Source: a virus. Taken from it: a stretch of DNA of 64,000 bases. The stretch lies in the IMG/VR virus record IMGVR_UViG_3300047174_000111, positions 32,572 through 96,571 of that record; one strand, given 5' to 3'. The notes under the pieces were generated by a model. It ran no database searches and was not told the origin of the DNA. It was given only the letters and a program-made list of their open reading frames with translations. Below, one piece after another: positions 9,493 through 50,432 of this stretch. Position 1 is the stretch's first letter, and each line of letters opens with the position of its first letter. A program made the translations under genes and the position numbers.

Positions 9493-9493
9493 C

Positions 9494-20437: not shown

Positions 20438-20524
20438 GCCTAGCCGTGCCGAGGTAGGCGGAACAGATGGACCGCGATCTTTGGCGGGGGCGCCGCTGAT
20501 GGACGCGACGGGTTTTGTGAGCGC

Positions 20525-21303: not shown

Positions 21304-21311
21304 AGGTTGGA

Positions 21312-22065: not shown

Positions 22066-22460
22066 GTTGCGACCTTCGCCGGCGGCTTCACGTCCTGCTT
22101 CAGCTCGCCGCACAACCCGATCTTCGGGACGTGGTGGGCGCAGATTCCGTCCTGTCCTGGCTCATACACGACGCAGGGCGAATACGGCCGGCGGTCATAG
22201 ATCCCGCATCGCCCGTCGGGCTGCAGCTCGGTGCAACGGAAGTTCCAGACCCATCCTTGTCGGGGGTCGTGTATCATGCCGATCGGAACAAACGGTAGGC
22301 CGTAGGCAATCCGGCCACCGAGCACAGCCTCTTCGTAGGGATAGTCGTCAAGCAGCGTGGTCACGCTTTCAGCGGTGGGCCAATCGAGAACGTTCAAAGT
22401 GCTGAGCGTGAAACCGCGGCAGCACCGGCCAGGATCGCGGCATGTGTCGCACGCGCTCAT
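22062..22460 (-). CDS. YkgJ/CxxCxxCC cysteine-cluster protein
   Basis: CDTC...CC...CTEL..DGRCGIYDRRP..C. Confidence 0.8.
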   Translation of the reverse strand: MSACDTCRDPGRCCRGFTLSTLNVLDWPTAESVTTLLDDYPYEEAVLGGRIAYGLPFVPIGMIHDPRQGWVWNFRCTELQPDGRCGIYDRRPYSPCVVYEPGQDGICAHHVPKIGLCGELKQDVKPPAKVAT

Positions 22461-22711
22461 GTGCCGATCTCGCAAAGCTTGCGCTTTTCGATCTCCGCCT
22501 TTTCCAATTCCTCAAGGGCATGCCGAACCTCGACAGCGACTTGGGCGCAAAATCTCAAGTCGCGGACCCCTGTGGATGACGTTGGCGCGAAATGTTTTTG
22601 CAACACCGTGAATACGGTAGCCTCTACCCTCATCGCGTGACGGTCGCTGGCCGAGAATTCCCTTTTACCCCATCCGGCGGGGCGCAGGGTGTTGGCGGTA
22701 AGATCGATCAT
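22457..22711 (-). CDS. hypothetical protein
   Basis: ATGA-coupled on both sides. Confidence 0.5.
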   Translation of the reverse strand: MIDLTANTLRPAGWGKREFSASDRHAMRVEATVFTVLQKHFAPTSSTGVRDLRFCAQVAVEVRHALEELEKAEIEKRKLCEIGT

Positions 22712-22896
22712 GGCTTGGCTCGCATCACGAACTCGCCACATGCAGGCGTCGTGGCGGAAACATCTGGCCGCGTGACGTAAGGCGTGTAGAGGACTGGTTG
22801 TTGATTATCACTAGGCCACAGCACCATTTGCGGCGGGTACCTGTAGCACTGGCCAGCAAGTTTATATTTGCATTCGCCGCATGTATTATTGCTCAT
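22708..22896 (-). CDS. small Cys-rich protein
   Basis: CGECKY...CYRYPP...CGEF. Confidence 0.65.
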   Translation of the reverse strand: MSNNTCGECKYKLAGQCYRYPPQMVLWPSDNQQPVLYTPYVTRPDVSATTPACGEFVMRAKP

Positions 22897-22986
22897 GTCG
22901 ATTTCTTCTCCAGGGTGCGCTCGAAAGGCCGAAGCATGTCAGCATACAGCTCCAGACGCGCTGCTGGAACGGGCGTTCATCAGGCC

Positions 22987-23481
22987 TCACTCGCATCCTT
23001 TCCCAACGGTTTCGCCGTTCGGCCCAGCCGTGAAATCGCGCCAGTGCCGCCAGCCTTGAGGGCAGTGAAACCCCCAGGCGCGGATCTTCGGGCCGGTGAC
23101 GAACAGCGTGACGACCGGCTCGTAACCAGACCTAGCGTCGGCGTCAGGGCCGCCCAGCAAGAGCTGAATGCGATGCGCGGCCCACGGCGACCGGAACACG
23201 AGCGCTCCCTCGTCCCGGAAATGAATCATGTCCGGCGTGTGCTCGAAGTACGAGCCCTTCAGGATCCATGAAAGGCACGCCCAGGGATGGTCGTGCAAAG
23301 CCCTGTCGTCGTCGGACCTGAGGAATTTGTGCAGATAGATGTTGCACAACCACCTGCACCTGAAGACATGCCAGCGCTCCAGATACGGACTACCGTCATG
23401 ACCGATCACGACGTCCGGGGGACGCGCATCCAGGACTTGCAGGGCGCGTCGCGTCAGCCGGTCCCGCAGAAACGCCCTCAT
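22987..23481 (-). CDS. phage cupin-like protein
   Basis: YLERW...LHKFLRSDDDRALHDHPW...GSYFE...HRI...WGF. Confidence 0.75.
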   Translation of the reverse strand: MRAFLRDRLTRRALQVLDARPPDVVIGHDGSPYLERWHVFRCRWLCNIYLHKFLRSDDDRALHDHPWACLSWILKGSYFEHTPDMIHFRDEGALVFRSPWAAHRIQLLLGGPDADARSGYEPVVTLFVTGPKIRAWGFHCPQGWRHWRDFTAGPNGETVGKGCE

Positions 23482-23552
23482 TCGTCCCTCCGCGAGAAAC
23501 CCCGGCCTTCAGGCCGGGGAGGGATAGCGGTTCGCGCGACAGCGCGAAGACC

Positions 23553-23581
23553 TTGACGGCGCATCGAATGCCTTCCATACT
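23553..23581 (+). promoter_or_regulatory. tnpB promoter (likely leaderless mRNA)
   Basis: TTGACG-17nt-CATACT, 7 nt before ATG. Confidence 0.7.
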
Positions 23582-23588
23582 TGACGGC

Positions 23589-24665
23589 ATGAAGCTCGTA
23601 GCTGCCGTGAAGATGATGCCAACGACCGAGCAGGCCGCGTGCCTGACGGCGACGCTGGCGCGCTGCAACGAGGCGTGCTCGTGGCTGGCCGGTATCGGTT
23701 TCGACACGAAGACATTCCGGCAATACGACCTGCACAAAGCTACCTATGCGGAACTGCGCACCCGCTTCGGATTGACCGCGCAAGCCGCCGTGCGATCCAT
23801 CTCCAAGGTCGCGGACGCCTTCAAGGTCAACCGCGATGTCGCGCCTGTCTTTCGAGCCGATGCGGCACAGCCCTACGACGACCGCATTATCCGTTTCGTT
23901 AAGGATGGCAGCGCGGTCAGCCTGTGGACGCTGGAAGGCCGCATGGTGGTTCCCATCGTGATGGGCGAACACCAGAAGCGGCTGATGGTATTCCGCAAGG
24001 GCGAAGTTGACCTGTGCCTCGTGCGCGGGAAATGGATGCTCGCCGCGACATGCGACATTCCCGAGACCGACGAGTTCAAGGCCGAAGACTGGCTGGGCGT
24101 CGATCTTGGCATCGTCTCGCTGGCCGTGGATAGCGACGGCGCGACCTACAGCGGGGCCGAAGTGGAGCGTGTCCGCCGCCGCCAGCAAAAGCGCCGGAGC
24201 GGGTTGCAGAAGTGCGGCACCAAGGCCGCCAAGCGGCGGCTCCGCAAGCTGGCGGGAAAACAAGCGAGGTTTCAGAAGCACACCAACCACTGCATCGCTA
24301 AGGCTGTCGTGATGGACGCTGAACGCACTGGACGCGGGATTGCCCTCGAAGACCTCAAGGGTATCCGTAGCCGGGTTACGGCTCGCAGCAACCAACGCGC
24401 ACGATTGGGGAATTGGGGTTTCGCACAGCTTGGCGCATTCGTCTCCTACAAGGCGAAGCGCGCTGGCGTCCCCGTGGTCTTTGTCGATCCGCGCAATACA
24501 TCCCGGCAGTGCCGGGAATGTGGATGCATCGACAAGAAGAACCGAACCAATCAAGCCAACTTCTCCTGTGTTTCGTGTGGGCACCAAGCGCCCGCCGATC
24601 TCAACGCGGCCCGGAATATTCGGGCCAAGGCTTCTGTAACCAAGCCCTGTGTTCTGGCCGCCTAA
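23589..24665 (+). CDS. tnpB: RNA-guided endonuclease TnpB
   Basis: RuvC GVDLG / IALEDL / ADLNAA intact; CRECG...CVSCG zinc ribbon. Confidence 0.95.
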   Translation: MKLVAAVKMMPTTEQAACLTATLARCNEACSWLAGIGFDTKTFRQYDLHKATYAELRTRFGLTAQAAVRSISKVADAFKVNRDVAPVFRADAAQPYDDRIIRFVKDGSAVSLWTLEGRMVVPIVMGEHQKRLMVFRKGEVDLCLVRGKWMLAATCDIPETDEFKAEDWLGVDLGIVSLAVDSDGATYSGAEVERVRRRQQKRRSGLQKCGTKAAKRRLRKLAGKQARFQKHTNHCIAKAVVMDAERTGRGIALEDLKGIRSRVTARSNQRARLGNWGFAQLGAFVSYKAKRAGVPVVFVDPRNTSRQCRECGCIDKKNRTNQANFSCVSCGHQAPADLNAARNIRAKASVTKPCVLAA

Positions 24666-24707
24666 TAAGCAGCACGGAAAAGCCCCTCCCTTCAGGGAGG
24701 GGATCGG

Positions 24708-24917
24708 TTACTGTCGCGCTGCCTTCTTGAGGCGGGCAATGACACCCTTCCGGATCCCGATTTTCTGATATGACGCAGGAATGCGCGTCACGGCGCCGGT
24801 CTCGGCGTGGCGGAGCTGCATGTGGCCCTGGCTGTTTCGCCCGGTGGGCCTCCAGCCGTGCTCTCGTGCGATGGCGAGCACCTCGCGCTCGTCCCGGTTC
24901 GCGCAGCTTCCGCTCAT
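24708..24917 (-). CDS. HicA-like small protein
   Basis: REVLAIAREHGW.....QGHMQLRH...G..TRIP; ATGA-coupled start. Confidence 0.6.
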   Translation of the reverse strand: MSGSCANRDEREVLAIAREHGWRPTGRNSQGHMQLRHAETGAVTRIPASYQKIGIRKGVIARLKKAARQ

Positions 24918-25219
24918 GCGTCGCGGAGCCTTTCGGGGAGCCGCCATCGAGGTGGTCCCTTCGAGACTAGGTTCACCGCGTGGTACCCGCAGGGATGAGG
25001 CGTCAGCGTGATCTGACCTCCGCACCACTCGCACTGGACGTGCTGGCGCTCGGCGGTCGGATCGAACGGCGTGTTCCCGCAGCAGAAGCCGCACATCATG
25101 GTTGCGATCTTGTCGCGTTCATACTGCTTCTGCGCCGCGCCATATCGCTCCAGATAGGCCATGGTGCGTTGCATGACGGAGGCGCGCCTCGGCGGCGGGG
25201 TAAACGGCGGGTCGATCAC
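24914..25219 (-). CDS. zinc-ribbon protein
   Basis: CGFC...CEWCG; GAGG RBS. Confidence 0.55.
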   Translation of the reverse strand: MIDPPFTPPPRRASVMQRTMAYLERYGAAQKQYERDKIATMMCGFCCGNTPFDPTAERQHVQCEWCGGQITLTPHPCGYHAVNLVSKGPPRWRLPERLRDA

Positions 25220-25345
25220 ATCAAAACCTCATCGATGACTGCGGTGGCCCTGAAATAACATCTGGACCACAGCAGCGCCACATCATAATGTGTCGACGCG
25301 GCGCACGTCGGATGGCTGCCAGGGCGGTCGGTGCGGACTGATCCT

Positions 25346-25437
25346 GGCCACGCGTCGGCAGGCGTGGCCGCAATACTGGGCTGTTTCCTCCCAACCTTGG
25401 CCGGCCCGGTTATGTGACACCCGGGCCGGCCTTTTTT
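25346..25437 (+). ncRNA. SuhB/MmgR (alpha-r8)-like small RNA; 5' end uncertain
   Basis: GGGCTGTTTCCTCCC-AACCTTG immediately followed by terminator stem and T6. Confidence 0.65.
25399..25437 (+). terminator. intrinsic terminator
   Basis: GGCCGGCCCGG/CCGGGCCGGCC stem + TTTTTT. Confidence 0.85.
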
Positions 25438-25452
25438 GTTGCGCCGCTCGAT

Positions 25453-25462
25453 GCGGGGACCA
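25453..25462 (+). promoter_or_regulatory. late-gene motif GCGG[GC]GACCA (other copies 37295, 39000, 44076, 45768, 50378, 56202)
   Basis: seven intergenic copies, each upstream of a virion gene. Confidence 0.7.
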
Positions 25463-25504
25463 AGACGCGGTTGAGCCGCTCCAAGACCCTGGAGCGCGCC
25501 CCGC

Positions 25505-26578
25505 ATGACAGACGCCGAGCTCGAAGAATTCCTGCGCGCGCGTTTGGCCTCGCCACAGGATCACATGACCGCGGCGCACATCATTGGCGACCTGGTCAAG
25601 CTCGCGCCGCTGTTCGCCGATGCTGAAACGCTGCCCGGCGCGAAGGCGACGCTGGAGCGCTGGCAGGCCGAGGGCGGTGAGCTGCGCAAGGGCATCGCAA
25701 CGGCGTGGCTGGCGCGGGCGCGCGGCGCGCTGGAGGCCGGCGCGGAAAAGGCCGGGGAGCTGGGCGCGAAGGCCGGAGCGGCGATCGAGCCGCATTCCCC
25801 GGCCGGGCGGGACATGCGCGACTACGCCGGCGGCCTGAAAGGACGTCCGACCACATCGGCCGGCAAGAAGATGGAGGCGGACGCGGCCGACTACGGTCGC
25901 CGGACCGCCGATGCAGCGTCTCGGCTTCGGGCCGCCCTTCGTCCGCACGAGGAGGCGCAGCACCAAGCTGATCTGCATGCGGGACGTACGGGCCGCAGTC
26001 ACGCGACCGACGTCCGCCAGGGCCGGGCGGCCCGCGCGGACGACGAGTGGGTCAACGCCGGCGCGCGCCACTCGCGCCAGCGATCGATCGCGGCGCATCA
26101 GGATGCGTACGCCCGGATGGGCCGCACCGCGGCGAAGTTCGGGTTCAAGGCCGGCCTCGCCGTGGCAGGCGCGGGCACTGCGGCCGGCGCGGCGGCGGGG
26201 GCTCACGCCATGCTGTCCGATGCCCAGCGCAAGGAGCGCGTCTCGGCCGCCAAGGCGCGCTGGTCGCATCAGGAGAGCATGAACAAGGCGGCGGCCCGTG
26301 ATGATCTCGCGAAGCTCAATCTCGTCAGCGCGGCCCGCAATGTCGTGCGCGGCGCGCGTCTCGGGATGAAGGCCTACCGCGCGGTCGACACGCTGAAGGC
26401 CGCAGCCTCGGGTGTGGGTTCAGCCAGCGACATCGCCCGCGCCACGAGGCCGATGGACCGGCGCGCTTTCATCCAGGGCGCGGCCACTTCGGCACTGAAA
26501 TCGGCTGCGAAATCCTCATCGCTCGCGAAGCATCCGATCGCGCGCGTAGCGATAAAGGCAAGCGAGGCAATGTCATGA
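25505..26578 (+). CDS. Ala/Arg-rich putative internal head protein
   Basis: upstream of protease; DLVK|, MNK|A, DLAK| sites; Gly/Ala hydrophobic segment. Confidence 0.65.
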   Translation: MTDAELEEFLRARLASPQDHMTAAHIIGDLVKLAPLFADAETLPGAKATLERWQAEGGELRKGIATAWLARARGALEAGAEKAGELGAKAGAAIEPHSPAGRDMRDYAGGLKGRPTTSAGKKMEADAADYGRRTADAASRLRAALRPHEEAQHQADLHAGRTGRSHATDVRQGRAARADDEWVNAGARHSRQRSIAAHQDAYARMGRTAAKFGFKAGLAVAGAGTAAGAAAGAHAMLSDAQRKERVSAAKARWSHQESMNKAAARDDLAKLNLVSAARNVVRGARLGMKAYRAVDTLKAAASGVGSASDIARATRPMDRRAFIQGAATSALKSAAKSSSLAKHPIARVAIKASEAMS

Positions 26579-28131
26579 CCCTCTTGAACGCCGCGGCCGC
26601 GCCGCGCACGCTGGTCATTCCGTTGACCAAGATCGACGTCGAGAAGCGCCTCGTCTACGGCGTGGCGGCGGCCGAAATCCGCGACCAGGCCGGCGAGGTG
26701 ATGGATTACGCCTCCGCCAAGCCCGCCTTCGCGAGCTGGTCCAAGTCGTTCGAGGACGCCACCGGCGGCCTGTCAAAGGGCAACCTGCGGGAGATGCACA
26801 ATCCCAAGATGGTCGCCGGCCGGCTCGACCAGCTCGGGTTCGACGATGACGGCAAGCGCATCGAGGTCTGCGCCAAGGTCACCGATGACCAGGCTTGGAA
26901 GAAGTGCCTGGACGGCTGCTACACCGGATTCTCGGTTGGTGGCGGCTACGGCCCAAAGTGGACCGACGACGCCGGCAACAAGCGCTACACGCCGATCGTC
27001 CGCGAGTTGTCGCTTGTGGACAATCCCTGCATCCCGACGGCGCGGTTCGCCGAGCTGGTCAAGGCGCACGGCGTGGTGGAGCAGCTGGAGCTGCGCGGCT
27101 CGCCCCTCACCACGTTCGCCACGGCGTGGGCCGCGCGGCCGCGCACCTTCGCGGAGCAATGGGACGGAAGGCTGCGGAGCTTCGGCGATCTGCACAAGGC
27201 ATGGGACGAGAGCAAGCATCCGCGCGACCATGGCAAATTCGCGAGTGAAGGAGGTTCAAGCGATCGCGACGACGACTATGAGGCGCGACGCTGGCGCGCG
27301 GGCATTATCGGCGGCGTTCTCGGGACAGTTGCGCTGCCTGTACCTTTCCTCGGCACCTATGCTGGCTATAGGCTTGGGCGTGCACTTGTCAGCCGCGGGC
27401 CGGCCGCAGGCCACACCCAGCAAGACTTCGACGATATCGCCCAGCTGGAGGAAATTTCGCGCCAAGAGGATGCTGCCACGGCGCGACGCTACATGCAGGG
27501 GCAGACAGCCCGCGAGCCACGTCCCCAGCAACACAATCCTGGCGGTCAAGCCAGATATCGCGAGCGTCCGCTTCCGCCCAACTCCAGGGCCCAGAACGCA
27601 ACCCGGCTCAGCGGCAAACAACTTGCCGTGCCGGTGACGAGAGCGCACCCAGTGCAGACGCAGGCCAGCATGCCGGGTCGGCGACTTCCGCCGAACGACG
27701 AGGGCCACGAAGACGGCGCTCCGTTCCGTGCCTCGACCGGCGCGCGCGGTCCGATGGCGGCGCAGATGCCTCGAACGCAGCAGCACGACACGGGGCAATC
27801 CGCCTCGAATCCTGCGCGTCCGCTGCCGCGCAACGATCTTGGGAAGAACTGGGCCGGATGGCTGGGCGCACAGGCTGTGTCAACTGTCGTGCCGGGCACG
27901 ACAACGCTCGGGGTTTACCGGAGCTTCGGGGGTGGAAAGGGACGCAATCCCTCTCGGCGTATCAAACAGCCGAAGGCGCCGGCAGCTCAAACCGATACCT
28001 CAGCCCCTCCTGCAGACACAAGCGGCGGCACCGACCAGCAGCGCGCGGGCTACCAGAGGTTCCAGCAGACGCAGCGTTCTGTTCGGAGCGCCTTCGGTAT
28101 GCGCACGAAGGGGTGGGGCGCGCCATCGTGA
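26575..28131 (+). CDS. XkdF/HK97-type prohead protease with C-terminal cargo extension
   Basis: KID.EKRLVYG...NLREMH...YTGFSVGG...ELSLVDNP; ~330 extra residues follow. Confidence 0.85.
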   Translation: MTLLNAAAAPRTLVIPLTKIDVEKRLVYGVAAAEIRDQAGEVMDYASAKPAFASWSKSFEDATGGLSKGNLREMHNPKMVAGRLDQLGFDDDGKRIEVCAKVTDDQAWKKCLDGCYTGFSVGGGYGPKWTDDAGNKRYTPIVRELSLVDNPCIPTARFAELVKAHGVVEQLELRGSPLTTFATAWAARPRTFAEQWDGRLRSFGDLHKAWDESKHPRDHGKFASEGGSSDRDDDYEARRWRAGIIGGVLGTVALPVPFLGTYAGYRLGRALVSRGPAAGHTQQDFDDIAQLEEISRQEDAATARRYMQGQTAREPRPQQHNPGGQARYRERPLPPNSRAQNATRLSGKQLAVPVTRAHPVQTQASMPGRRLPPNDEGHEDGAPFRASTGARGPMAAQMPRTQQHDTGQSASNPARPLPRNDLGKNWAGWLGAQAVSTVVPGTTTLGVYRSFGGGKGRNPSRRIKQPKAPAAQTDTSAPPADTSGGTDQQRAGYQRFQQTQRSVRSAFGMRTKGWGAPS

Positions 28132-28154
28132 CCATGTTCGGGGTCATCATCTGA

Positions 28155-31100
28155 ATGCCGCGTCCTCACTTCGACGCCACGCTGATCGGTGAGCTGCGCA
28201 ACCGCGTGGTCGCGCACAACCAGCGCACGCCCTCCGCACTGGCCAAGCTCGGCCATGTGAAGCGCATCTACGAGAAGGCCTACAGCGGCCCGACGCCGCA
28301 CGAGCGCGCGCTGGCCAAAGTCGATGCCCACCTGAATGACCTGGCCAAGGCCGGAGAGTTCGACGATGCAGAGCATCCGCGCGGCGCCCACGGTCGCTTC
28401 TCTCGCACCGCTGCGGCCAAGCCGGGCGTCTCCATCCCGCTGCCGGCGACGCAGGATGAGCATCAGAAACTCCAGCAGACGAACGCAGGCTATCGCGCGC
28501 TGACCACGGATCTGCTCCCGACGCGCCACAACGAGATCATCGGCGGCGTCGTCCGCGATGTCGGTTCCGCGGCGGCTGGAGGCCTTCTCGTTGCCGGCCT
28601 GCTGCGCGGTCGTCCCGGCGGCGCAGTGCGGCGCGGCGCGCGCTGGATCGGCGGCATGGCAGGGAAATATGGCCTCGGTATTCCCGTCTCTCTGACAGCG
28701 CATGGGCTGACAGCCGGCGCGGGCGTCACGCGCGCCGCGATCGCACGCGGTCGGGGCAGGCCTGCACCACCTGATCCGAGCCACGACCTGGCGGCACGGA
28801 TCAGCGAATGGTTCGGCGCTCATGGTCAGCGGATCGGTGCCGCAACGGCCGACCTCAGCATGGGCGCCGCTTCAGCTGCGGCGCGGGCCGCGGTTCACGT
28901 CGCCGGCTCGACAGCGCGAACTCCCGGACAAGCGCGCCTCCGCCGCGTCGGCGCCGCGGCTGCGCTGGCAGCGGTTCCAGCGCTGGCGATCCGAAGCAAG
29001 ATCGAGGACACGCAATTGGACCCCGCCGTCATCGGCCGCAACATCGACGCCTACTCGTATCGCTCGGTCCAGAAACTGGCCGGGGACCCAAACGCCGAGG
29101 ATCTGCTCAAGGCGAGCTTCCTGCGATATCCCTATGTCGGCGGCGTGGCGCGCGCGGTCCGCACCGGCGCCGCTGCGGTGGGCGGAGCCGCGGCCGGCGC
29201 ACTGGCAGGCTTTGGGATTCACGCCGCGACGGGTGCCGGCGATCACGCGCGGGGCAACCCCAACCACGACGCGCGCGGCAGGTTCACGTCGCGTGACGCC
29301 GCCGTCTCGGGGGGCGCGCTTCTGGGCGGCGCTGCGGCCGGGCTGGGCGTCTATGCGGCGCTGCGAAGCCACAACACCGCCCAGCTAAGCCGCGCTCTGG
29401 CGAGGAGCAGCACCAAGCTGGCCCGCAAGCTGGCGGCGGTTCGGTCGGAAACCGGCATCGGCTCAGTGCCGAAAATGATCGCGGAACGGGACGCGCGTGT
29501 TCGCGAGATGATGGACGAGGAGCCCTTTGCTTCTCGGCTCAAGGACGCGGGTGCCAGCCTGCAGGAGCCGTCGGGAGAGTTCCGGGTGGTCAATGCCAAG
29601 GCGTACACCCGGGCGAAGGTAAACGACCACCTTGCCTCCAAGCTGAGCCAGATCGACGAGTTTGCAATCCCCAATGAGGTGAGCGGCGCGTCGAAGTCGA
29701 TGCGCGACCTGCGCGCCAAGGCTCGGACCCACGTCGATCCGGACATTGTCGCAAAACAGAAGGTCCTCGAATTCGTCGCTTCGGCCACGCCGAAGGAATT
29801 CCACGACGCGCTGGCGACCGTGCCGGACGAAAAGGTGCGCCAGGAGATCGGCTCGATCTTCGATAAGCGTCAGGAATGGATCAACGCCGTCGATGACCAA
29901 ATCGCCGCCCATCATGAAGCCATTGCGCAAGCCGAAGCCGAAGTCAAAAAAACGAGCCAGAGAGCGGCGGACGCGCAGGTCGCAGCAGACAAAGCGAGCG
30001 CCGCTCACGAAGCCGCCGAAGGAAAAGCCAAAGCAGCGGCCAAGAAGCGCTTCGACGCCGCCGATAAGGCTTTCGACGACGCCGACGAGGCTCACCAAAC
30101 CGCCATCAGCCGTCTGGACGATCTGAAGAAGCAGCCGACCGGCGTGAGGTTGCCCAAGGAGCTGGGCGGCGCCGCCGTCCCGAAGCCGTCCCGCGAAGCG
30201 ACGGAGCGGAGCCGATCGTCGATCATTGAGGCCGTACGGAGCGACGCCCGGAAGAAGGCCGACAAGGAGATCGCTGATGCGCGCGATGCGCAGGAGCGCG
30301 ACATCGTTCATCGGCACAGCCGCGCGGTGGCCGCGCATACACACATGACGCACTCCTCCGGCGCCGCGGTACCCGACCAGGCCGCGGCCGAGGCGCGCGC
30401 CGTCGCGGCAGCCTCGGTCGCGCATGAGCAGGCCCGCGACGCGCTGAACACGGCGCACCGCAACCTGATCGAGACGCAGCAGCGTCACGACGCCCACGTC
30501 TCGATCACGCCGCTGCCGAGCCAGCGCAAGGACCACACCGCCGCGACGAAGGCCCTCAAGGCGCAGATCAAGCAGCACCAGGCCGATCTGAAAGCCGCCC
30601 ATGCCGCGGTCAGCACGACAAGCGCGGATGTGACCGGCGCTGTGCAGGCGATGGAGCGCCAGATGCGCGTCGCCGCGGCGTCGACGGGCGGACCACGCCT
30701 GCCCCGCCAGATGATCGGCGATCTGAGGCTTGAAGTGATGCGCGCGGCGCGCGCCGCAGCCTCGCCGGTGGATGCTTTCATCCGGTCACCCTCAGCGGCG
30801 GCCTTGAAGCAGTTCGCCTCGTCGGCGATCGGCCTCGCCGGCGCAACCGCCGCTGCGACCGGGGAAGGCATCAAGGAGACCGCGAAGAAAGCATTCCTGA
30901 CAGAGGACGGGTCAGCGCTGCATCCCGGCAAGGCGATCGCCTCTATCGGCGTGGCCACGGCCGCGACCGACGCGATCCTGGACCACGGCGCGCATATCCG
31001 CCGGGCCCTGTTCGGCTCCGACGAGGAGAAAGAGTCGGCCAAGCCGCTCAAGGCCCCCAAGGGGTTCCGGACCGAACACAAGGTGCATCCCATCACCGGC

Positions 31101-33188
31101 GCGGGCTATATCGCGGTCCACGCGCCCGACCCCGACAACAAGGGCGAGCGTCTGGTGGTTTACGGCGAGCACTACAAGAACGATGGGTCGACGACACCTC
31201 TCCGCGCCGGTTCGACGCTATCGGATGTGCGTCGCGCGGTTGCCGATTATGAACAGAAATACCAGCAGCAGCGCCCGCAGAACCAGAACGCGCCCAGCAG
31301 CAGCACGATCGGGGGCGCGACGAGCGGCCCGCGCGAGCTGCGTGATGCGCAGAACCTGGAGCCGAACCGCAAGGCCCTGATCGACAAGACCGTGGCCGCG
31401 CTCAAGGGCACGCAGGGCGGCCTGCAGACGCTGCGCGCTGGGCAGGACGGGCCAGAGATGCAGTTCCGTGGCGACGGATCGAACGACAAGGAGCACAACG
31501 ACGCGGCGGGCCAGTTCGTCGCGCATCTCCGCGACAAGCATCTCGCGTCCGGCGCGCCCCAGGGACAGGCGGTTCACAAGGCGCTCGACACGCTGTTCTC
31601 CAATGAAGGCCGCGTCCTGACCCGCAAGCAGGCGTTCGCCCAGCTGACCGGCTACACCAAAGAGGGTCAGGACCGGAACAAGCCGTCGATCCTGACGAAG
31701 CGGCCCGGGTTCGGATCGGCCGACAAAGCCGAGGTCGGCGCCGCGCTGAACGCCGAGATCGACCGCATCGTCAAGGACGCGGCGCCCAGGGATGACCGAG
31801 AGAAGGGCGCACTGCATCTCGCTGCATCGGTGATCGGCGTAGAGAAGCAGCTTCCCGACGACGTGATGCAGGCGGTCCACGCCAAGATCCGCGGCTCAAC
31901 GCCGACGACGGGTCCGGCCGAGACGGCGGGGGCAAGCAGCTCCGGCATCGCGGCGCCCAAGGCGCAGCCAGCCGGGCCGATCGCGAAGGAGCCGGACAGC
32001 ACCGACCCGGACAAGCTGGTCGAGAACGAGAACCCGCCGCATTTCGTGGCGAGCCAGCTTCGTGATTACGCGGAGGGTGAGGCGCGCGCGCTGCGCACCG
32101 ATCTGCGCCTGCGTCAGGCTGACCAGGCGGAAATCCTCATCCCGGCGATCGAGCATCTCGCGCGCGTCGTGGGCCACAGCCATGGGCTGGACGAGCAGAC
32201 CGCAGCGCGGGTCGCGGCGGACACGTTCCGCGCCACGGCCGCGGGCGGGGACTGGAACCGCGTTATGACGGCCGATGAGATCGCGAAGGGCAACCTGAAC
32301 ACGTTCCGCTACACGCTGCGGCGCAAGGCTGACGCCGAGAAGCTGAAGATGGAGGCCAACAAGTCCGCCGGGGCTGTGCCGCTCGGTAAGCTGCTCGACG
32401 ATCTCGACGCGCTGGCCAAGGCGTTCGACGGTGGAGATTTCAATCCAGATTTGCACCCACGGTTGGCCGCTGGTGAGCAGGGAGGTGGCGAGTTTGCTCC
32501 AAAGGGCGGTCATGGCGCTGGGGGTTTGGCGGGGCGGATCAGACAAGGGGCTGTCGAGGGATCGACCGATATCGTTGACAAGCAGGCCGCAGCTGCTGCG
32601 CGTGGCACCAGCCGCAAGGCGGTGCCGTGGTACAGTCCCGGCCGCGCAATCCCCGATGCCGGCAATGCGCTTGGAGGTGCATTCGCCTATGCCGGCGCCG
32701 AGAAGGCGATGCAGATCGCCGAGCGCTTCCTGCCGGCACCCTTGCGCACGGCCGCCGAGGTTGCGAGCGCGCCGGGATTGGTGGGCGGCGTCAAGGCGGC
32801 GCTCGGATTGGGCTTCAAGGGCGCCATCAAAGAGGGCGCGAAGGCAGCCGCGAAAACAGGGTTGGTCGGCGGTGCATCCGTCGCCGGCGGAACGCTGGGC
32901 GCCTTAGTAGGCACGAAACTGGTCGGCCACGAAGCGCCCGCCCCCGCCTACCACGACTCAGGCGAGGCGTTGGCCGAGAGCGCCGGGTCGCTCGCCGGCA
33001 GTTTCGCCGGCAGCGCCGCCGCGCTCGTGCCGGGCCCCGGCTGGCTAGTGGCGCCGACGCTCAGTGCCGCCGGCAGCTACGCGGGCGGTTTGGTGGCGCG
33101 CGGCGCGTACGACTGGTTCAAGGGCTACGACCAGAAGACCGTCGCGCGCGTCGCGCGCCGTTACGCCAAGCCTGCGACCAACCCATGA
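28155..33188 (+). CDS. 1677-aa putative internal virion polyprotein
   Basis: between protease and scaffold; three HPR/HD..G[RE]F peptides, LxK|A sites, glycine zippers, coiled coils. Confidence 0.75.
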   Translation: MPRPHFDATLIGELRNRVVAHNQRTPSALAKLGHVKRIYEKAYSGPTPHERALAKVDAHLNDLAKAGEFDDAEHPRGAHGRFSRTAAAKPGVSIPLPATQDEHQKLQQTNAGYRALTTDLLPTRHNEIIGGVVRDVGSAAAGGLLVAGLLRGRPGGAVRRGARWIGGMAGKYGLGIPVSLTAHGLTAGAGVTRAAIARGRGRPAPPDPSHDLAARISEWFGAHGQRIGAATADLSMGAASAAARAAVHVAGSTARTPGQARLRRVGAAAALAAVPALAIRSKIEDTQLDPAVIGRNIDAYSYRSVQKLAGDPNAEDLLKASFLRYPYVGGVARAVRTGAAAVGGAAAGALAGFGIHAATGAGDHARGNPNHDARGRFTSRDAAVSGGALLGGAAAGLGVYAALRSHNTAQLSRALARSSTKLARKLAAVRSETGIGSVPKMIAERDARVREMMDEEPFASRLKDAGASLQEPSGEFRVVNAKAYTRAKVNDHLASKLSQIDEFAIPNEVSGASKSMRDLRAKARTHVDPDIVAKQKVLEFVASATPKEFHDALATVPDEKVRQEIGSIFDKRQEWINAVDDQIAAHHEAIAQAEAEVKKTSQRAADAQVAADKASAAHEAAEGKAKAAAKKRFDAADKAFDDADEAHQTAISRLDDLKKQPTGVRLPKELGGAAVPKPSREATERSRSSIIEAVRSDARKKADKEIADARDAQERDIVHRHSRAVAAHTHMTHSSGAAVPDQAAAEARAVAAASVAHEQARDALNTAHRNLIETQQRHDAHVSITPLPSQRKDHTAATKALKAQIKQHQADLKAAHAAVSTTSADVTGAVQAMERQMRVAAASTGGPRLPRQMIGDLRLEVMRAARAAASPVDAFIRSPSAAALKQFASSAIGLAGATAAATGEGIKETAKKAFLTEDGSALHPGKAIASIGVATAATDAILDHGAHIRRALFGSDEEKESAKPLKAPKGFRTEHKVHPITGAGYIAVHAPDPDNKGERLVVYGEHYKNDGSTTPLRAGSTLSDVRRAVADYEQKYQQQRPQNQNAPSSSTIGGATSGPRELRDAQNLEPNRKALIDKTVAALKGTQGGLQTLRAGQDGPEMQFRGDGSNDKEHNDAAGQFVAHLRDKHLASGAPQGQAVHKALDTLFSNEGRVLTRKQAFAQLTGYTKEGQDRNKPSILTKRPGFGSADKAEVGAALNAEIDRIVKDAAPRDDREKGALHLAASVIGVEKQLPDDVMQAVHAKIRGSTPTTGPAETAGASSSGIAAPKAQPAGPIAKEPDSTDPDKLVENENPPHFVASQLRDYAEGEARALRTDLRLRQADQAEILIPAIEHLARVVGHSHGLDEQTAARVAADTFRATAAGGDWNRVMTADEIAKGNLNTFRYTLRRKADAEKLKMEANKSAGAVPLGKLLDDLDALAKAFDGGDFNPDLHPRLAAGEQGGGEFAPKGGHGAGGLAGRIRQGAVEGSTDIVDKQAAAAARGTSRKAVPWYSPGRAIPDAGNALGGAFAYAGAEKAMQIAERFLPAPLRTAAEVASAPGLVGGVKAALGLGFKGAIKEGAKAAAKTGLVGGASVAGGTLGALVGTKLVGHEAPAPAYHDSGEALAESAGSLAGSFAGSAAALVPGPGWLVAPTLSAAGSYAGGLVARGAYDWFKGYDQKTVARVARRYAKPATNP

Positions 33189-34729
33189 GCGACAGCGCCG
33201 GCAGCGCGCCGACCTTCACCGAGTCCGCGAATCCCACCGCGGGGCTGCAGCCCTATGACATCGAGCGTGGGACCAAGAACCTCTATCCAGGCCCGCGTGT
33301 CGGGCGCTTCCGGCACGCCGGCAAGCGCAGGCGCGGCCACATGCGCAAAGGAACAGACATGGACGCCATCGAGGCGATGGTCGGCACGCTCTCGACCAGC
33401 GTTGCAGACCTGATCCGAGCCAACCCGCCGAACATCGACGAGCTGCTCGAAAAGAATTTCGGCGAGTTCAAGGCCGTCCTGACAGACCAGATCGGCAACA
33501 ACGTCGCTGAGCAGATCGAGCTTGCCAAGGCCGATATGCCGATCCTCGAGGAACCACTCTACAAGGGCCTTGGCTGCGTCGGCCGCGTCGCGAACCTCGT
33601 GTCGTCCATCGTCTCCCAGGTCCAGGCGCTTCGCGAGGGGGGCGACTACTACAGGCGCGACGACGACAAGGACCCGGCCAGCGAAGACGTCGCCACGATG
33701 CTGGATCACCTCGTCGATCTCGCCACGCTGACCCTGCGCGCCGCCGTCAACGAGCACGTCGGCGTGGCCGATGACGACGACATGGAAAATCCGCCCGACG
33801 GCATGCATCTGATCCTGCTGCCAACGGCCGAGGATCCCGACAACGAGGATGATGGCGTGGTTGTGAAGACAGCGCTGCCGGAGGACTTGGCCAAGTTCGC
33901 GCTCGACCCGGGCCTGATCGGCCAGGGCATCGTCCAGATCGGCGCCGGGCTGATGCTCGACGGCGGAGTGCCGGAGCAGACGCTGTCCAAGCTGTTCGAG
34001 ATCGACTCCGACCCCCTGCGGAAGAACTTCCCGCCCAAGAAACCGGCCGCGTCAGGTTCGTCCGGCAGCAATGCGCCGGCCGATCCCTCGATCGATCCTG
34101 GCGCGTCCACCGGCTCGGCCGCGCCGCCGGATGACTCCGGCGATGGTATGGACGATGCCGGCAGCGACGACGGCTCGGGCGACAACCCGCTCACCGTGCT
34201 GGGCCGCATTCTCGCCGCCGCGATGATCCAGCTGGACCACATCCAGCAAATCGTCGACGGCCCCGATGCGGACGACGGTCAGGACATGGACGACGGTTCG
34301 GAGCAGGACAGCGCGGGCAATCCGACCATGGCGATGGGCAACCCGTCGATGGGCAAGTCGGTTCAGCAGGGCGGTCTGTCCAAGGCCGCTTCGGCGGCCG
34401 CTTCGCCTCCCGCGGCCCCCGCGCAGCAGCCGCTGGTCGACGATCTCCAGAAGCAGGTCAACGACCTCAAAGGCCAGCTCGCCAAGCTGCTGGCGCAACC
34501 GGCGCCGCCCAAGGGCATCGCCAACCCGGTCGTGCTGAGCAAGACGCTCGACACCGGCGGCATGCCGCCCAGCGAGGAGGCGGAGCTGCAGAAACTGGCC
34601 GCTCAGATCGACCGTCTCCCGGTCGAGCAACGCCAAGCGGCGATGGCTCAGGAGCTGATCAAGATGCAGCTTCGCAAACCGCAGCCCGCGACCGGCGCCG
34701 GTGCGCTGAGCGGCACCATCGCGCGCTGA
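33185..34729 (+). CDS. acidic scaffold-like head protein (alternative start 33359)
   Basis: Asp-rich, C-terminal coiled coil + QPAPPKG, directly upstream of capsid gene. Confidence 0.7.
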   Translation: MSDSAGSAPTFTESANPTAGLQPYDIERGTKNLYPGPRVGRFRHAGKRRRGHMRKGTDMDAIEAMVGTLSTSVADLIRANPPNIDELLEKNFGEFKAVLTDQIGNNVAEQIELAKADMPILEEPLYKGLGCVGRVANLVSSIVSQVQALREGGDYYRRDDDKDPASEDVATMLDHLVDLATLTLRAAVNEHVGVADDDDMENPPDGMHLILLPTAEDPDNEDDGVVVKTALPEDLAKFALDPGLIGQGIVQIGAGLMLDGGVPEQTLSKLFEIDSDPLRKNFPPKKPAASGSSGSNAPADPSIDPGASTGSAAPPDDSGDGMDDAGSDDGSGDNPLTVLGRILAAAMIQLDHIQQIVDGPDADDGQDMDDGSEQDSAGNPTMAMGNPSMGKSVQQGGLSKAASAAASPPAAPAQQPLVDDLQKQVNDLKGQLAKLLAQPAPPKGIANPVVLSKTLDTGGMPPSEEAELQKLAAQIDRLPVEQRQAAMAQELIKMQLRKPQPATGAGALSGTIAR

Positions 34730-34893
34730 TTTTTCTGAAATGACGTGTTGACAGGGGGACTGAACCACCGGCCGTCCCCCTGTCGTGGACCGAAAACACA
34801 TCGGGACCACATCGCGCCGACCACCTGACCGCCGGTTGCGCAGCCGGCCATGGCCCCAAACCGCCGCTGGGCCGCGGCTGCGCTGACGACACG

Positions 34894-36399
34894 GTGAACA
34901 ACGTGGATACTTCCGCGACGCTCGACATCCTGCGGGAAGCTCTTGCCAAAGCCGCCGATCCGGTGGAACTTGCCAAGGCGGCGACCTTCGTCCAATCGGT
35001 CACGCCGACCGTCGGTCTGCAGCTCTATGACCTCGAACCGGCCGCGAAGAATCTCTACCCGGTCCTGACGCCGCTGCGGAATCGCATCCCGCGCGTCTCG
35101 GGCAAGGGAGGATCGCAGGCGAACTGGAAGGGCGTCACCGGCATCGACACCGGCTCCATCTTCGCCGGTGTGACCGAAGGCCGACGTGGCGCACTCATCT
35201 CCGTTGCGACGAAGGAATACTTCGCCGCGTATCGGACGATCGGCTCCGAGGCGTCGGTCACCTTCGAGGCCGATCTGGCCGCGGGCGATTTCGACAATCT
35301 GCGCAGCCGCGCCTCGATGTCGAACCTGCAAGCGCTGATGATCGCCGAGGAGAAGATCATCCTCAGCGGCAACACGACGTATCAGCTCGGCCAGACCCCA
35401 ACGCCCGTCTGCGTCGCGGCCAACACCGGCGGAGCACTCGCGGCGAGCACCACCTTCTCGGTCATCTGCGTCGCCCTGACCACGCTGGGCAAGGCGACGG
35501 CAACCGTGGCGACCGGCGTGGTCGGCGTGACGACCCGTCAGACAGCCGACGGTTTCACCGATACGTACAATGGCGGCTCGGCCATCAAGAGCGCCAACGG
35601 CACGGTCGCGACCGCCGCTGGGACCGCGACCAACTCCGTCGCGGCCGCGGTCACGCCCGTCCGCGGCGCGTTCGCCTACGCTTGGTTCTGGGGCGCGGTC
35701 GGCTCCGAGGTGCTGGGCGCGATCACCAACGTCGCCAACTACACCATCACGGGTGCTGCGACGGGCACACAGACGGCCGCGTCGCTGCCGGCGCTGGACT
35801 GCTCGACCAACTCGCTGGTGTTCGATGGCCTGCTGTCGATCGCATCGGGCTCGACGAACGGCGGCTACTACTATGCGGCGGCTCCGGGTGCCGGCCTCAC
35901 GCCGGACAACTCGGGCGGCATCATCGAGTTCGACACGGCGCTGCAGTGGTTCTGGGACAATCTGCGTCTCGCCCCGAGCCGCATCATCCTGTCGAGCCAG
36001 GAGATGACGTGGATCCGCCGCGCCATCCTGACCGGCAACGCCGCGACGCCGTCGAACGCCCGCTTCACGTTCTCGATGCAGCAGGGTCAGATCGTCGGCG
36101 GTGGTGCGCCCAAGGGCTACATCAACACCTTTGCCGCGGGCGGGGCGCCGGCCGAGATCCCGTTCGAGCTGCATCCCTACATGCCGCCCGGCAACGTCCT
36201 CTTCCTGACCGAGGACCTGCCCTACCCGATGAACAACGTCACGAACGTGATGCAGATCAAGGCGCGGCGCGACTATTACCAGATTGACTGGCCCCAGATC
36301 ACGCGCCAGTACCAGTACGGCGTCTACTCGGACGAAGTGCTGCAGCACTACTTCCCGCCGAGCATGGGGCTCATCACCAACCTGTCGCCCGTTCTGTAG
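34894..36399 (+). CDS. major capsid protein
   Basis: propeptide LAKA..LAKA; YDLE..AK.LYP..TPLRNRIPR; C-terminal RRDYYQIDWP...Y..GVY..EVL..Y.P..G.ITN; position. Confidence 0.85.
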   Translation: MNNVDTSATLDILREALAKAADPVELAKAATFVQSVTPTVGLQLYDLEPAAKNLYPVLTPLRNRIPRVSGKGGSQANWKGVTGIDTGSIFAGVTEGRRGALISVATKEYFAAYRTIGSEASVTFEADLAAGDFDNLRSRASMSNLQALMIAEEKIILSGNTTYQLGQTPTPVCVAANTGGALAASTTFSVICVALTTLGKATATVATGVVGVTTRQTADGFTDTYNGGSAIKSANGTVATAAGTATNSVAAAVTPVRGAFAYAWFWGAVGSEVLGAITNVANYTITGAATGTQTAASLPALDCSTNSLVFDGLLSIASGSTNGGYYYAAAPGAGLTPDNSGGIIEFDTALQWFWDNLRLAPSRIILSSQEMTWIRRAILTGNAATPSNARFTFSMQQGQIVGGGAPKGYINTFAAGGAPAEIPFELHPYMPPGNVLFLTEDLPYPMNNVTNVMQIKARRDYYQIDWPQITRQYQYGVYSDEVLQHYFPPSMGLITNLSPVL

Positions 36400-36410
36400 T
36401 CGCCTCGACT

Positions 36411-36444
36411 GGCCCGGATCACCACGATCCGGGCCGCTTCTCTT
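36411..36444 (+). terminator. hairpin after capsid gene
   Basis: GGCCCGGATC-ACCAC-GATCCGGGCC then pyrimidine tract. Confidence 0.6.
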
Positions 36445-36711: not shown

Positions 36712-37293
36712 GTGGCTGCGCCGCTCGACTTCTTCTCGCTGACCGACGCCAAGACCTATCTCGGCATCGCTCTGACCGACACGTCTCAGGACGCGCTGCT
36801 GGAGCTGATCCTGCCGTCCGCGACCCAGGCCGTGGTCGACCTGCTCTGCTGGGACCCGAACAGCCAGGAGGTCAACGAGCGCTACAACGGCACCGGCGCA
36901 CCGGCGATCGTGGTCAACCGGAAGTGCATCTCCGCGGTCGCATCCGTCGCGATCGAGAACCCGATCACCGGCACGCAGAACGTGCTGGACCCGTCGCACT
37001 ATTTTTTCGACGGGCAGAAGATCCTGTCGCGGCGCGGTCCTTACCCGCGCGGCCAGAAGAACATCATCGTCAGCTACACGGCCGGCCTGGTACCGATCCC
37101 GGCCAGCATCGTCCTGGCCGCCAAGATGACCCTCAAGGCGATGTGGAGCGGCAAGGACTTCGAGCAAAACGCGACAGGATCGGAAGTGCCCGACGTCGAA
37201 AGCCTGACGTTCTGGCCGACCGGGCCGGGCGCAGTGCCGCCGCAGGCCCGCAGCCTGCTCATGAAATACCGCATCGAGATGCTGGTCAGCTGA
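36712..37293 (+). CDS. head-tail adaptor (gp6-like)
   Basis: LTDAKTYLGI...DALL..I..A...VSYTAG...P..I..A...LL.KYR. Confidence 0.85.
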   Translation: MAAPLDFFSLTDAKTYLGIALTDTSQDALLELILPSATQAVVDLLCWDPNSQEVNERYNGTGAPAIVVNRKCISAVASVAIENPITGTQNVLDPSHYFFDGQKILSRRGPYPRGQKNIIVSYTAGLVPIPASIVLAAKMTLKAMWSGKDFEQNATGSEVPDVESLTFWPTGPGAVPPQARSLLMKYRIEMLVS

Positions 37294-37347: not shown

Positions 37348-38988
37348 ATGCGCCGCTTTCTGCTCACGTCCACCTGTTGTCTTGCGCTGCTCGCCGCCGC
37401 TGACCTCGCCGAGGCGCAGACGCGCGGTAGTGCGAGTCTGCCTGCCGCGACAACCGCCCAGCTCTACGGCGGATCGGGCGCGGCGGGGTCGGCTTCCGTG
37501 GTGGGCGTCGGAACGGGCCTAGCGCTGTCGGGCGGCTCGCTCTACGCGACTGGCACGAGCACGACGCCGCTTGGTTCGACGTGCTCCGCGACGGCGCCGA
37601 GCCGGTCTGGGGACGTGACCACGGGGCTCGCGTCCCTGGCAGGGGCGCGAGTGGATATCTGCGCGGGCGGCAGTCAGGCGGGTGAGTTCTCCGGCTCGGG
37701 CACGCTGACGCTCGGGGCGTCGGGTCAACATGGTATTATTCAGACGACGGGCACGTCTGGCCTATACCTGAACACACCCGCCTTAACGTCTTTCACGGAA
37801 ATTCAACAAGCCGGGACCGCCCTGATCGATTTCGGCGAGTCGGTTCCCGCAATTTATCCGCATGTTCCTTTGTGGTTCGGAAACATTGTTTGGACTAACA
37901 CCCACGACGTTGCCCCGCTTTTTCAGAACGTCCAGGTTTCTGGCACGACATCAGCTTCTTCCGCGGGCATGGGTTTATGGATGCACCAGTCGGACAACTC
38001 GTCAAACACCGGCGGCAATCAAGCGGGCCTTTACGAATTGTTGTCCGTGGACGCACAACCCGGCGGCGTCCCAAGCAGCATGTTCGGCACGCGCAATGCG
38101 GCGCAGATAGGGTTCACACTCAACGTGCCGTCAGCAAATCTCGCCGCGACGGAATATGGCGGTATGTTCGGTCCGTTCTGCAATCTTCTGGCCACCGATG
38201 GCCCAGCAAATAACACCCTCGGCGGTTCGTGTTTTGGTCTGAACCCAATTGCTCATGCCGGACCGAACATTTACGCTCAGGAGATTAGCGTCGGCGAGGC
38301 GGACAACTGGATTGAGTCTGGAGCAACGGTCCTAGACAGCTTTGGCTGGAAAGTCGCGTCCTCAAACGGCACTGTCTCCGGCGCGGTTGGTCATCAAGCG
38401 CAGCGTGACGATGCCGCGTTACTTATCGGACAGTCTTACATTAGCGCTCCTGGCCAAGGGTGGCGCAACGCGTTTCAGATCGGCTCCTACGCTGGCTTTT
38501 TTGCTGGTGCGACGGACGGCAATCTGATGACTGCTAGATCTCATGTGGACAATCTCACCGCAGACCCGCAAATACTCGCTAATGGGCTCTACTTTCCAAA
38601 CCTGACTATCACAAACCAAGCAATAAATTTCGGCGGCAAGTTTATCGTCACTGGGGCAGGTGGCACTCAGGCCACGTCCTTGACCACCAATGGCGGCGAA
38701 TTTGCGCATCGCAATGCCATCTCGGACGCGAATTACACAGCTACCTCGAATGACGACGTCATCGCCTACACGACCTTAACAGCTTCCCGCACACTAACTA
38801 TCCCGTGCGCCTCGCTAGGCACTGCAACCAACCCTCAGAAGATTATCGTCAAGGACGAGAGCGGTTCGGCTGGCACCTTTCCTATTTCTCTCGCAGCCAC
38901 GATCGACGGATCGACCACGAAAGCCATCAACACCGCCTACGGCTCGATGCGGCTGTACGCCAATGGAGCGGCCTGCTTCACCTGGTGA
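37348..38988 (+). CDS. signal-peptide-bearing beta-rich fibre-like protein
   Basis: MRRFLL..LALLAAADLAEA|Q; C-terminal Y.....D.VI......TLTIP...IIVKDESG...TIDG..T..IN..YGS fibre-type domain. Confidence 0.7.
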   Translation: MRRFLLTSTCCLALLAAADLAEAQTRGSASLPAATTAQLYGGSGAAGSASVVGVGTGLALSGGSLYATGTSTTPLGSTCSATAPSRSGDVTTGLASLAGARVDICAGGSQAGEFSGSGTLTLGASGQHGIIQTTGTSGLYLNTPALTSFTEIQQAGTALIDFGESVPAIYPHVPLWFGNIVWTNTHDVAPLFQNVQVSGTTSASSAGMGLWMHQSDNSSNTGGNQAGLYELLSVDAQPGGVPSSMFGTRNAAQIGFTLNVPSANLAATEYGGMFGPFCNLLATDGPANNTLGGSCFGLNPIAHAGPNIYAQEISVGEADNWIESGATVLDSFGWKVASSNGTVSGAVGHQAQRDDAALLIGQSYISAPGQGWRNAFQIGSYAGFFAGATDGNLMTARSHVDNLTADPQILANGLYFPNLTITNQAINFGGKFIVTGAGGTQATSLTTNGGEFAHRNAISDANYTATSNDDVIAYTTLTASRTLTIPCASLGTATNPQKIIVKDESGSAGTFPISLAATIDGSTTKAINTAYGSMRLYANGAACFTW

Positions 38989-39050
38989 GGTGGCTTGCGG
39001 CGGGGACCAAGCGCCGCGCCATCAGCAGCCGAGACAGTCAGGGGCGCGCC

Positions 39051-39353
39051 ATGGGGCAGATGTTCACCCAGGATTACTCCTGCAGCGTCGGAGCAACCGC
39101 GCAGCAGGTCTGGACGACGGCGCAGCTGCCGATCGGGATGAGCTATATGCGCCTGTTCAACGCATCCCCCGTTGGCGGCGCGACGATCTGGTACTCGCGC
39201 AACGGCCAACCCGCGGCAGCGAACGCCCCGGGGTCGCTGTCTTTGGCCCCTGGCCAGGATGAGACCTGGAAAGTGCCGCAGCCCCCTCCGTTCAACAACT
39301 TGTCGGCCATCGCCGTGGGCGGCACCGGATCTTTGACGGCGGAAGTGGGATGA
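39051..39353 (+). CDS. small beta-rich virion-type protein
   Basis: follows late motif; ATGA-coupled to next gene. Confidence 0.65.
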   Translation: MGQMFTQDYSCSVGATAQQVWTTAQLPIGMSYMRLFNASPVGGATIWYSRNGQPAAANAPGSLSLAPGQDETWKVPQPPPFNNLSAIAVGGTGSLTAEVG

Positions 39354-45765: not shown

Positions 45766-45798
45766 CCGCGGCGACCACGCCGCGCCAATGCTCGCTTC

Positions 45799-50360: not shown

Positions 50361-50432
50361 GCGGCCACTACGTTGCCGCGGGGACCAGCACACCGGCCAC
50401 CGGCCTCTGTCTGCCACCAGCCAGAGGGCCTC

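Follow-up and report, generated by a model that had tools for sequence, protein, structure and literature searches.

What is understood of capsid-borne ejection proteins comes mainly from short-tailed phages, whereas in long-tailed phages the tape measure protein is assumed to make the channel. In phage T4, the internal proteins IPI-III and Alt carry a capsid targeting sequence that is removed by the prohead protease gp21; these proteins are basic, are packed in the prohead core and are ejected with the DNA. Here we analyse P0001, the 1677-residue product of a giant gene from an uncultured long-tailed phage. The gene lies in the last 64 kb (the window, 64,000 nucleotides) of the 96,571-bp IMG/VR virus record IMGVR_UViG_3300047174_000111, for which a completeness of 92% is estimated. 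The T4 internal proteins are mentioned in PMC5512222 and PMC7697877. The ejection (internal core) proteins of podoviruses, i.e., gp14, gp15 and gp16 of T7 and gp7, gp20 and gp16 of P22, are large, mostly helical and head-borne, and are thought to exit via the tail and to rebuild a conduit in the envelope; T7 gp16, with 1318 residues, is soluble and has two putative transmembrane (TM) regions (PMC8954989). Likewise, the phage polyvalent proteins and the effectors fused to MuF or portal proteins are very large, multi-module and linked to head genes, and they are predicted to be packaged and delivered with the DNA (PMC5512222).

By analogy, P0001 would work like the podovirus ejection proteins or the T4 internal proteins without being a member of either family. 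The explanation that we prefer, tentatively and at a little under an even chance, is that P0001 is a capsid-internal cargo processed by the prohead protease, probably ejected and maybe acting at the envelope; we infer its packaging, cleavage, ejection and membrane action from the sequence. P0001 would share a late transcript with the protease, the scaffold and the capsid protein, and would enter the procapsid as prohead-core cargo. There, an XkdF-like prohead protease would cut it at L-x-K(A) sites into a 7-kDa leader, a body of ~143 kDa (residues ~66-1423) and a C-terminal piece of ~25 kDa, leaving an HPR..G.F tag at the head of both the body and the C-terminal piece. Because P0001 is basic and cysteine-free, its products would probably remain with the DNA and exit through the tail at infection, and the most plausible role of the glycine-zipper hairpins would be to aid genome delivery by acting at the host envelope or by self-association.

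The open reading frame (ORF) of P0001 (28155-33188, + strand) extends without internal stop from an ATG at 28155 to a stop codon at 33186-33188, and encodes a protein of 174.5 kDa with an isoelectric point (pI) of 9.6 and no cysteine. It starts 23 nt past the stop of the upstream gene, and the start of the scaffold gene overlaps its stop (ATGA at 33185-33188). The GC content of the window is 65-70%, and spurious long ORFs are frequent there; conservation is therefore the evidence that P0001 is a gene. Full-length relatives at ~30% identity were recovered by a word-indexed search of 5.8 billion proteins, and both the N-terminus (MPRPHFDA) and the full length are kept in the homologues. An exhaustive HMMER search of 1.84 billion representatives with residues 851-1440 matched 46 proteins (45 at E <= 1e-10), and none showed an alternative architecture. 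Nearly all the family proteins have 1,560-1,940 residues, with the match at the same relative position, and four shorter relatives resemble truncated ORFs; as for split forms, no shorter proteins matching residues 1-850 were found. Judging from this conservation, P0001 is a real gene, and its relatives appear to form an unnamed family of about 46 sequence clusters with conserved length and architecture. No enzymatic or other family was found with Pfam (P0001, its pieces and 27 relatives) or PHROGs (P0001). Thus the 1677-residue frame and the lack of an enzymatic motif, both proposed in the initial annotation, are borne out. A search for look-alikes of residues 851-1440 in the ESM Atlas gave no usable match, and scans of metagenome and genome contigs yielded no confirmed relative.

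P0001 carries three tags of the form H-P-R-x(2-10)-G-x-F, with the histidine at residues 74, 371 and 1434; the second reads N-H-D-A-R-G-R-F. Nearly all of 43 family members have tags 1 and 2, and about half of them have tag 3. At the position of tag 2 some members have FDEExHPRAKDGKFTS and others GNPY(H/R)DxxG(R/K)FTS, which are variants of one motif. The protease ORF bears the same tag beyond its catalytic domain, with the histidine at residue 215, and in ORF 17009, a candidate for a second tagged cargo, the tag is found at the extreme N-terminus. A profile of tag 1 matched, at E 1e-5 to 1e-7, P0001 itself (tags 1 and 3), the proteases of the window and of the related viral contig L003, ORF 17009, the L003 homologue of ORF 25505 and an upstream head ORF of the related contig L006, and nothing further at E <= 0.01 among the six-frame ORFs of the window and five loci. 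A regular expression search, counting coding frames, found the tag confined to head-module genes, and absent from the fetched parts of Brevundimonas phage Polewnik and Arthrobacter phage Mufasa8. A literature search for the tag alongside MuF and capsid proteins found no published description, and 'HPR' is absent from PMC5512222.

The second shared element is the candidate cleavage site. L-A-K-A directly precedes tags 1 and 3 of P0001, and in the family LAKA at residues 63-66 and L.K at residues 1420-1422 are conserved. Of the 33 window proteins tested, 8 contain LAK[AGHV], while shuffling predicts about 2 occurrences overall; the motif is found in the MuF-like protein, ORF 20722, ORF 25505, P0001 (three times), the scaffold, the major capsid protein (MCP, twice) and the tape measure (once). 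Six of the bearers are head-module proteins, counting ORF 20722, which lies in an accessory island, and among the tail proteins tested none other than the tape measure has the motif. Both sites of the MCP lie just ahead of a conserved ATF.QS, and MCP relatives have L-x-K-(A/G/S) at the same place; similarly, a conserved E-L-(V/L)-K-A ends the protease domain in 4/4 proteases. It is from these data that we infer L-x-K(A) to be the site of the prohead protease, with cuts in P0001 at the end of the leader and ahead of tag 3. The tags and LAKA sites shared among these proteins, including the capsid N-terminus, point to P0001 being a protease-processed capsid cargo. A division into about four modules had been predicted: three tags are indeed present, two of them with L-A-K-A upstream, but since tag 2 lacks an upstream L-x-K site, three products are better supported than four.

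The location of P0001 in the head module of a siphovirus, as initially annotated, was confirmed by its head-gene neighbours and by the siphovirus-type tail genes (Table 1). The order protease-giant-scaffold-MCP is found in four phages: that of the window and those of the related viral contigs L003, L005 and L006. No terminator-like site was found on the + strand from 24646 to 36410, and a terminator-like hairpin is located downstream of the MCP gene, at 36410-36436. The protease domain matches phrog_9427 at E 5.5e-13, with Peptidase_S78_2 below threshold and no match among PDB sequences. The MCP is 48% identical to those of the Brevundimonas phages Polewnik and Strzyga, and 28% identical to the capsid protein of Mufasa8. 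Two isolated relatives, Polewnik among them, lack the giant. In Polewnik, gp43 (L001 12049-13830) is a fusion of protease and scaffold, with an XkdF-like domain (residues 6-162) that is 52% identical to the window protease and an acidic, scaffold-like tail with ELAKA motifs. From this fusion it follows that the place of the giant is precisely where protease and scaffold meet in the ancestral cassette. Both gp43 and the Polewnik MCP, gp44, are annotated merely as hypothetical. The possibility that P0001 is itself the scaffold of Polewnik-type phages was ruled out: its position fits, but it is basic and has no significant similarity to gp43. ORF 33185-34729, on the other hand, is an acidic protein just ahead of the MCP, conserved in three related loci, and has a weak local similarity to gp43.

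The composition of P0001 is also unusual. From the 1.13% cysteine of 31 other window proteins, 18.9 cysteines would be expected in 1677 residues, and there are none (P(0) = 5.7e-9); the family members have 0-2 each. The only other cysteine-free proteins of the window are the tape measure, ORF 17009, ORF 25505 and ORF 43379. P0001 has a net charge of +37 and an arginine-rich segment (residues 127-274) with a pI of 12. A basic, cysteine-free protein of this kind would fit lying with the DNA and passing unfolded through a narrow channel.

The four Gly/Ala-rich segments that had been described as glycine zippers are present and positionally conserved. Their 19-residue Kyte-Doolittle (KD) means are 1.37-1.52, under the classical 1.6; Hessa-type sums, which are rough and position-independent, are positive in every family member. 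The helix right after tag 2 (residues 381-407) is the most hydrophobic conserved element of the family, with KD values of 1.7-2.1 in many relatives. The Pfam glycine-zipper models (PF05433 and PF13488) did not match P0001, and only one of 28 members gave a hit, a sub-threshold one to PF13488 (E 0.009). For the modelled C-terminal hairpin the best alignments are to membrane hairpins, but these are within the noise for helical hairpins. This applies also to the Glycine zipper 2TM/Gly-zipper_Omp lipoproteins such as E. coli SlyB (PDB 7ojf), for which hhalign gave a probability of 41% over 18 columns; P0001 has no lipoprotein signal. On these features, insertion of P0001 into a membrane is possible. 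Zipper-like Gly/Ala stretches are also found in the N-terminal half of the MuF-like protein, in ORF 25505 and in the protease ORF past its tag (27289-27390, KD 1.76), so that the feature is not peculiar to P0001. The initial annotation saw here an ejected, membrane-inserting protein set, with superinfection block as one of its uses; a packaged and processed head protein is well supported by the synteny, the tags and the shared sites, but nothing specific favours a superinfection block.

Beyond these segments, P0001 consists of a family-specific leader, a long-helical region and, in the C-terminal half, several modelled domains. The leader had been likened to a small helical domain of phage head proteins; however, a profile of residues 1-62 matched only the P0001 family, both in the window with five relative loci and in the collection of 5.8 billion proteins, and a domain common to head proteins was thus ruled out. 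The long coiled coils previously proposed correspond to a long-helical region at residues 408-850, in which a coiled coil is no more than possible, given runs free of Pro and Gly of at most 57 residues and a weak heptad character; a PDB sequence profile search with the helical region gave only weak matches, to F-BAR, tropomyosin and keratin helices. Residues 851-1677 were modelled with AlphaFold2 and 45 sequences, reaching a mean predicted local distance difference test (pLDDT) score of 71, as compared with 41 by the same method with 3 sequences. The model shows a four-strand beta sheet with a helix (residues ~970-1040), an alpha/beta domain (1060-1250) and a helical domain (1291-1405), the last two with pLDDT 93-98, as well as the C-terminal helix-GPG-helix hairpin (~1598-1661), with moderate confidence. 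Foldseek against PDB gave a best E of 0.34. Against BFVD a single row, a mycobacteriophage VIP2-like protein, reached E 8e-4; this fold was rejected because of a TM-score of 0.10-0.13 and a root-mean-square deviation of 25.7 A. As modelled, the three confident domains appear to have no recognised fold in PDB or BFVD.

The presence of a separate, full tape measure had been noted as unexpected, and it was verified; its presence is all the more surprising as this protein has no clear hydrophobic segment. Its KD maximum over 19 residues is 1.16, and those of two other giant-bearing phages, G001 and G002, are 1.35 and 1.47; in contrast, the giant-less Polewnik (2.64 and 2.03) and Mufasa8 (2.19) have values well in the hydrophobic range. 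A segment with KD >= 1.6 is therefore absent from the tape measures of the three giant-bearing phages and present in the two giant-less relatives, although a comparison of five phages does not allow a conclusion. The pattern is suggestive, being as expected if the giant supplies a membrane function lost by the tape measure. A further step, which we consider rather doubtful, is that in this clade the breaching or spanning of the cytoplasmic membrane has moved from the tape measure, with loss of its TM segments, to the giant, whose tagged modules, cut in the capsid, would follow down the tail and whose zipper hairpins would form or line a DNA channel, an ejectosome-like device of a siphovirus. 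A lytic-transglycosylase-like stretch (VVAQRESSLG...GVFQLQ) was seen by eye at residues ~915-940 of the tape measure, and the whole protein has no Pfam match.

Several points weigh against P0001 being an ejected cargo: it has no cultured representative, and tblastn of P0001, like that of the 28-residue tag region of the protease, found no match in 50,697 phage records; its cleavage is argued from motif sharing only, and tag 2 does not have the site; and the tape measures compared come from five phages. Other roles can also be considered. P0001 could be a core protein needed only for assembly, which builds or sizes a large procapsid or recruits the portal and is then degraded and expelled before packaging. 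Its place between the protease and the scaffold, its co-transcription with both, the LAKA sites common to P0001, scaffold and MCP, and its tightly conserved length would suit such a role, and a basic P0001 could pair with an acidic scaffold. However, the phage has a conserved scaffold besides P0001, and relatives that lack the giant, with an MCP 48% identical, assemble nonetheless. Three well-folded conserved domains and Gly-zipper hairpins would be unusual for a disposable scaffold, just 2-3 candidate cut sites are present in 1677 residues, and the absence of cysteine parallels the tape measure, an ejected protein. We regard an assembly-only role as unlikely, though worth serious consideration.

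A similar standing is given to the proposal that P0001 is a DNA-associated internal body protein that organises or neutralises the packaged 96-kb genome and maybe enters the cell, with no membrane action and with its Gly/Ala helices serving protein packing. The charge and the arginine-rich segment described above, the marginal hydrophobicity of the zipper segments and the occurrence of Gly/Ala-rich segments in other head-module proteins are all consistent with it; nevertheless, Pfam detected no DNA-binding family in P0001 or 27 relatives, in many relatives the helix past tag 2 has hydrophobicity values like those of TM segments, and the non-hydrophobic tape measures of the giant-bearing phages would be left unexplained. 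An external or tail structural protein (a second ruler, a fibre or a decoration) encoded by chance in the head block is very improbable. P0001 is long, helical, cysteine-free and of constant length, as is a tape measure, and tape measure and minor tail proteins are among its weak BFVD matches, but these have TM-scores of ~0.1, PHROG and Pfam gave no tape-measure or tail match, the true tape measure is encoded elsewhere with chaperone-like genes upstream, and the tags are common to P0001 and the prohead protease.

As a candidate capsid cargo, P0001 differs from each of the described systems. It resembles the podovirus ejection proteins in being large, mostly helical and encoded in the structural module, and perhaps in having weak membrane segments. 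On the other hand, no sequence (PHROG) or fold match to these proteins was found (residues 851-1677 modelled); its phage is long-tailed and encodes a tape measure, P0001 is a single polyprotein-like chain that bears candidate protease sites and HPR tags, as against three genes in podoviruses, and it contains no peptidoglycan hydrolase domain. With the T4 internal proteins it shares a basic character and a short N-terminal leader ending at a candidate protease site. In P0001 this end is a conserved L-A-K-A, also present at the MCP N-terminus and in the scaffold, at which cleavage is predicted only; the protease is XkdF-like and not of the gp21 type, and the candidate site is L-x-K(A) instead of the L/I-x-E of T4. 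Moreover, the 65-residue leader is family-specific, nothing in T4 corresponds to the HPR tag and P0001 is 10-20 times larger. Like the polyvalent proteins, P0001 is encoded among virion genes, between the protease and the scaffold and MCP; yet the enzymatic, DNA-binding and LPD domains that define them were found by Pfam in none of 28 family members, and its modules are helical or membrane-like where polyvalent modules are effectors. From these comparisons P0001 would not be a polyvalent protein, a tape measure or a scaffold.

If P0001 is packaged and injected, long-tailed phages too can carry large structural cargo. The family, of ~1,700 residues, free of enzyme domains and tied into the protease-scaffold-capsid cassette of a siphovirus clade, also offers a natural system for the function of the apparently undescribed HPR..G.F tag and for the cleavage specificity of XkdF-like prohead proteases.

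Table 1. Features of P0001 and of the surrounding window (positions in the window; aa, amino acid residues; blank cells, nothing reported)
Feature	Position	Strand	Remarks
Terminase	9452-11146		
Portal	12668-15469		933 aa
ORF 17009	17009-18280	+	Cys-free 423-aa protein; starts with L-L-K and HPR tag MLELLKFDAAKHPRDDAGRF
MuF-like protein	18287-20437		
IS605-type TnpB	23553-24665		
ORF 25505	25505-26578	+	Cys-free, Gly/Ala-rich 357-aa protein upstream of protease; L003 homologue tagged
Prohead protease ORF	26575-28131	+	XkdF-like domain aa 13-171; ELVKA site; HPR tag KAWDESKHPRDHGKF; hydrophobic aa 242-260
P0001, N-terminal leader	28155-28349	+	aa 1-65; highly conserved, family-specific
P0001, first candidate site and tag 1	28341-28403	+	L-A-K-A (aa 63-66), then EFDDAEHPRGAHGRF (aa 67-83)
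P0001, Gly-zipper helices 1 and 2 around tag 2	29145-29375	+	helix 1 aa 331-365; tag 2 GNPNHDARGRFTS aa 366-380; helix 2 aa 381-407
P0001, long-helical region	29376-30704	+	aa 408-850; Ala-rich and charged
P0001, three confidently modelled domains	31050-32369	+	AlphaFold2
P0001, second candidate site and tag 3	32403-32495	+	L-A-K-A (aa 1420-1423), then FDGGDFNPDLHPRLAAGEQGGGEF
P0001, C-terminal Gly/Ala-rich module	32505-33185	+	helix-GPG-helix Gly-zipper hairpin (aa ~1598-1661); conserved Y-x-x-F-x-G-Y end
Acidic protein read as scaffold	33185-34729	+	514 aa; ELAKA site; conserved after giant in relatives
MCP	34894-36399	+	two LAKA sites in first 30 residues
Head-tail adaptor	36712-37293		
Head closure	43379-44074		
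Tail terminator	45672-46619		
Tail chaperone-like gene	about 50373-50849		
Tape measure	51200-55855	+	1551 aa; Cys-free; no clearly hydrophobic segment
J-like tip protein	57970-61566		

Some additional features of the region were observed. The N-terminal region of the MCP, TPTVGLQLYDLEPAAKNLYP, and the N-terminus of the scaffold, NPTAGLQPYDIERGTKNLYP, have a common conserved motif (tblastn E 4e-8 to 6e-8), located at 34894-35100 and 33185-33330 of the window, at 15472-15816 of L005 and at 10164-10268 of L006; the scaffold and the N-arm of the capsid protein could be paralogues or could bind to a common site. Approximately 5 kb (20440-25500), including the IS605-type TnpB (with OrfB_IS605 and a Cas12f1-like TNB domain), separate the MuF gene from ORF 25505. 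In L003 the homologue of ORF 25505 follows almost directly after MuF, which makes the window segment look like an insertion in the head module. Residues 259-364 of the portal, between two portal-matching stretches, match phrog_85 ('thymidylate synthase') at E 4.9e-14, which could mark a domain insertion or an intein-like element.

Between the adaptor and head-closure genes, 37348-42870 encodes three large proteins, two of which start with a hydrophobic, signal-peptide-like stretch (KD 1.6 and 2.16) and are rich in cysteine (8 and 9 residues), unlike the cysteine-free cargo candidates. In the J-like tip protein, residues 99-166 are strongly hydrophobic (KD up to 2.23) and precede the FNIII-A_GpJ and Phage-tail_3 domains; this part may be a fused membrane segment similar to that of tail assembly protein I. 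Finally, the giant-bearing G002 (40 kb, holding L006, L009, L010 and L013) is classed as a provirus in IMG/VR, and some members of the giant-bearing clade may be temperate.

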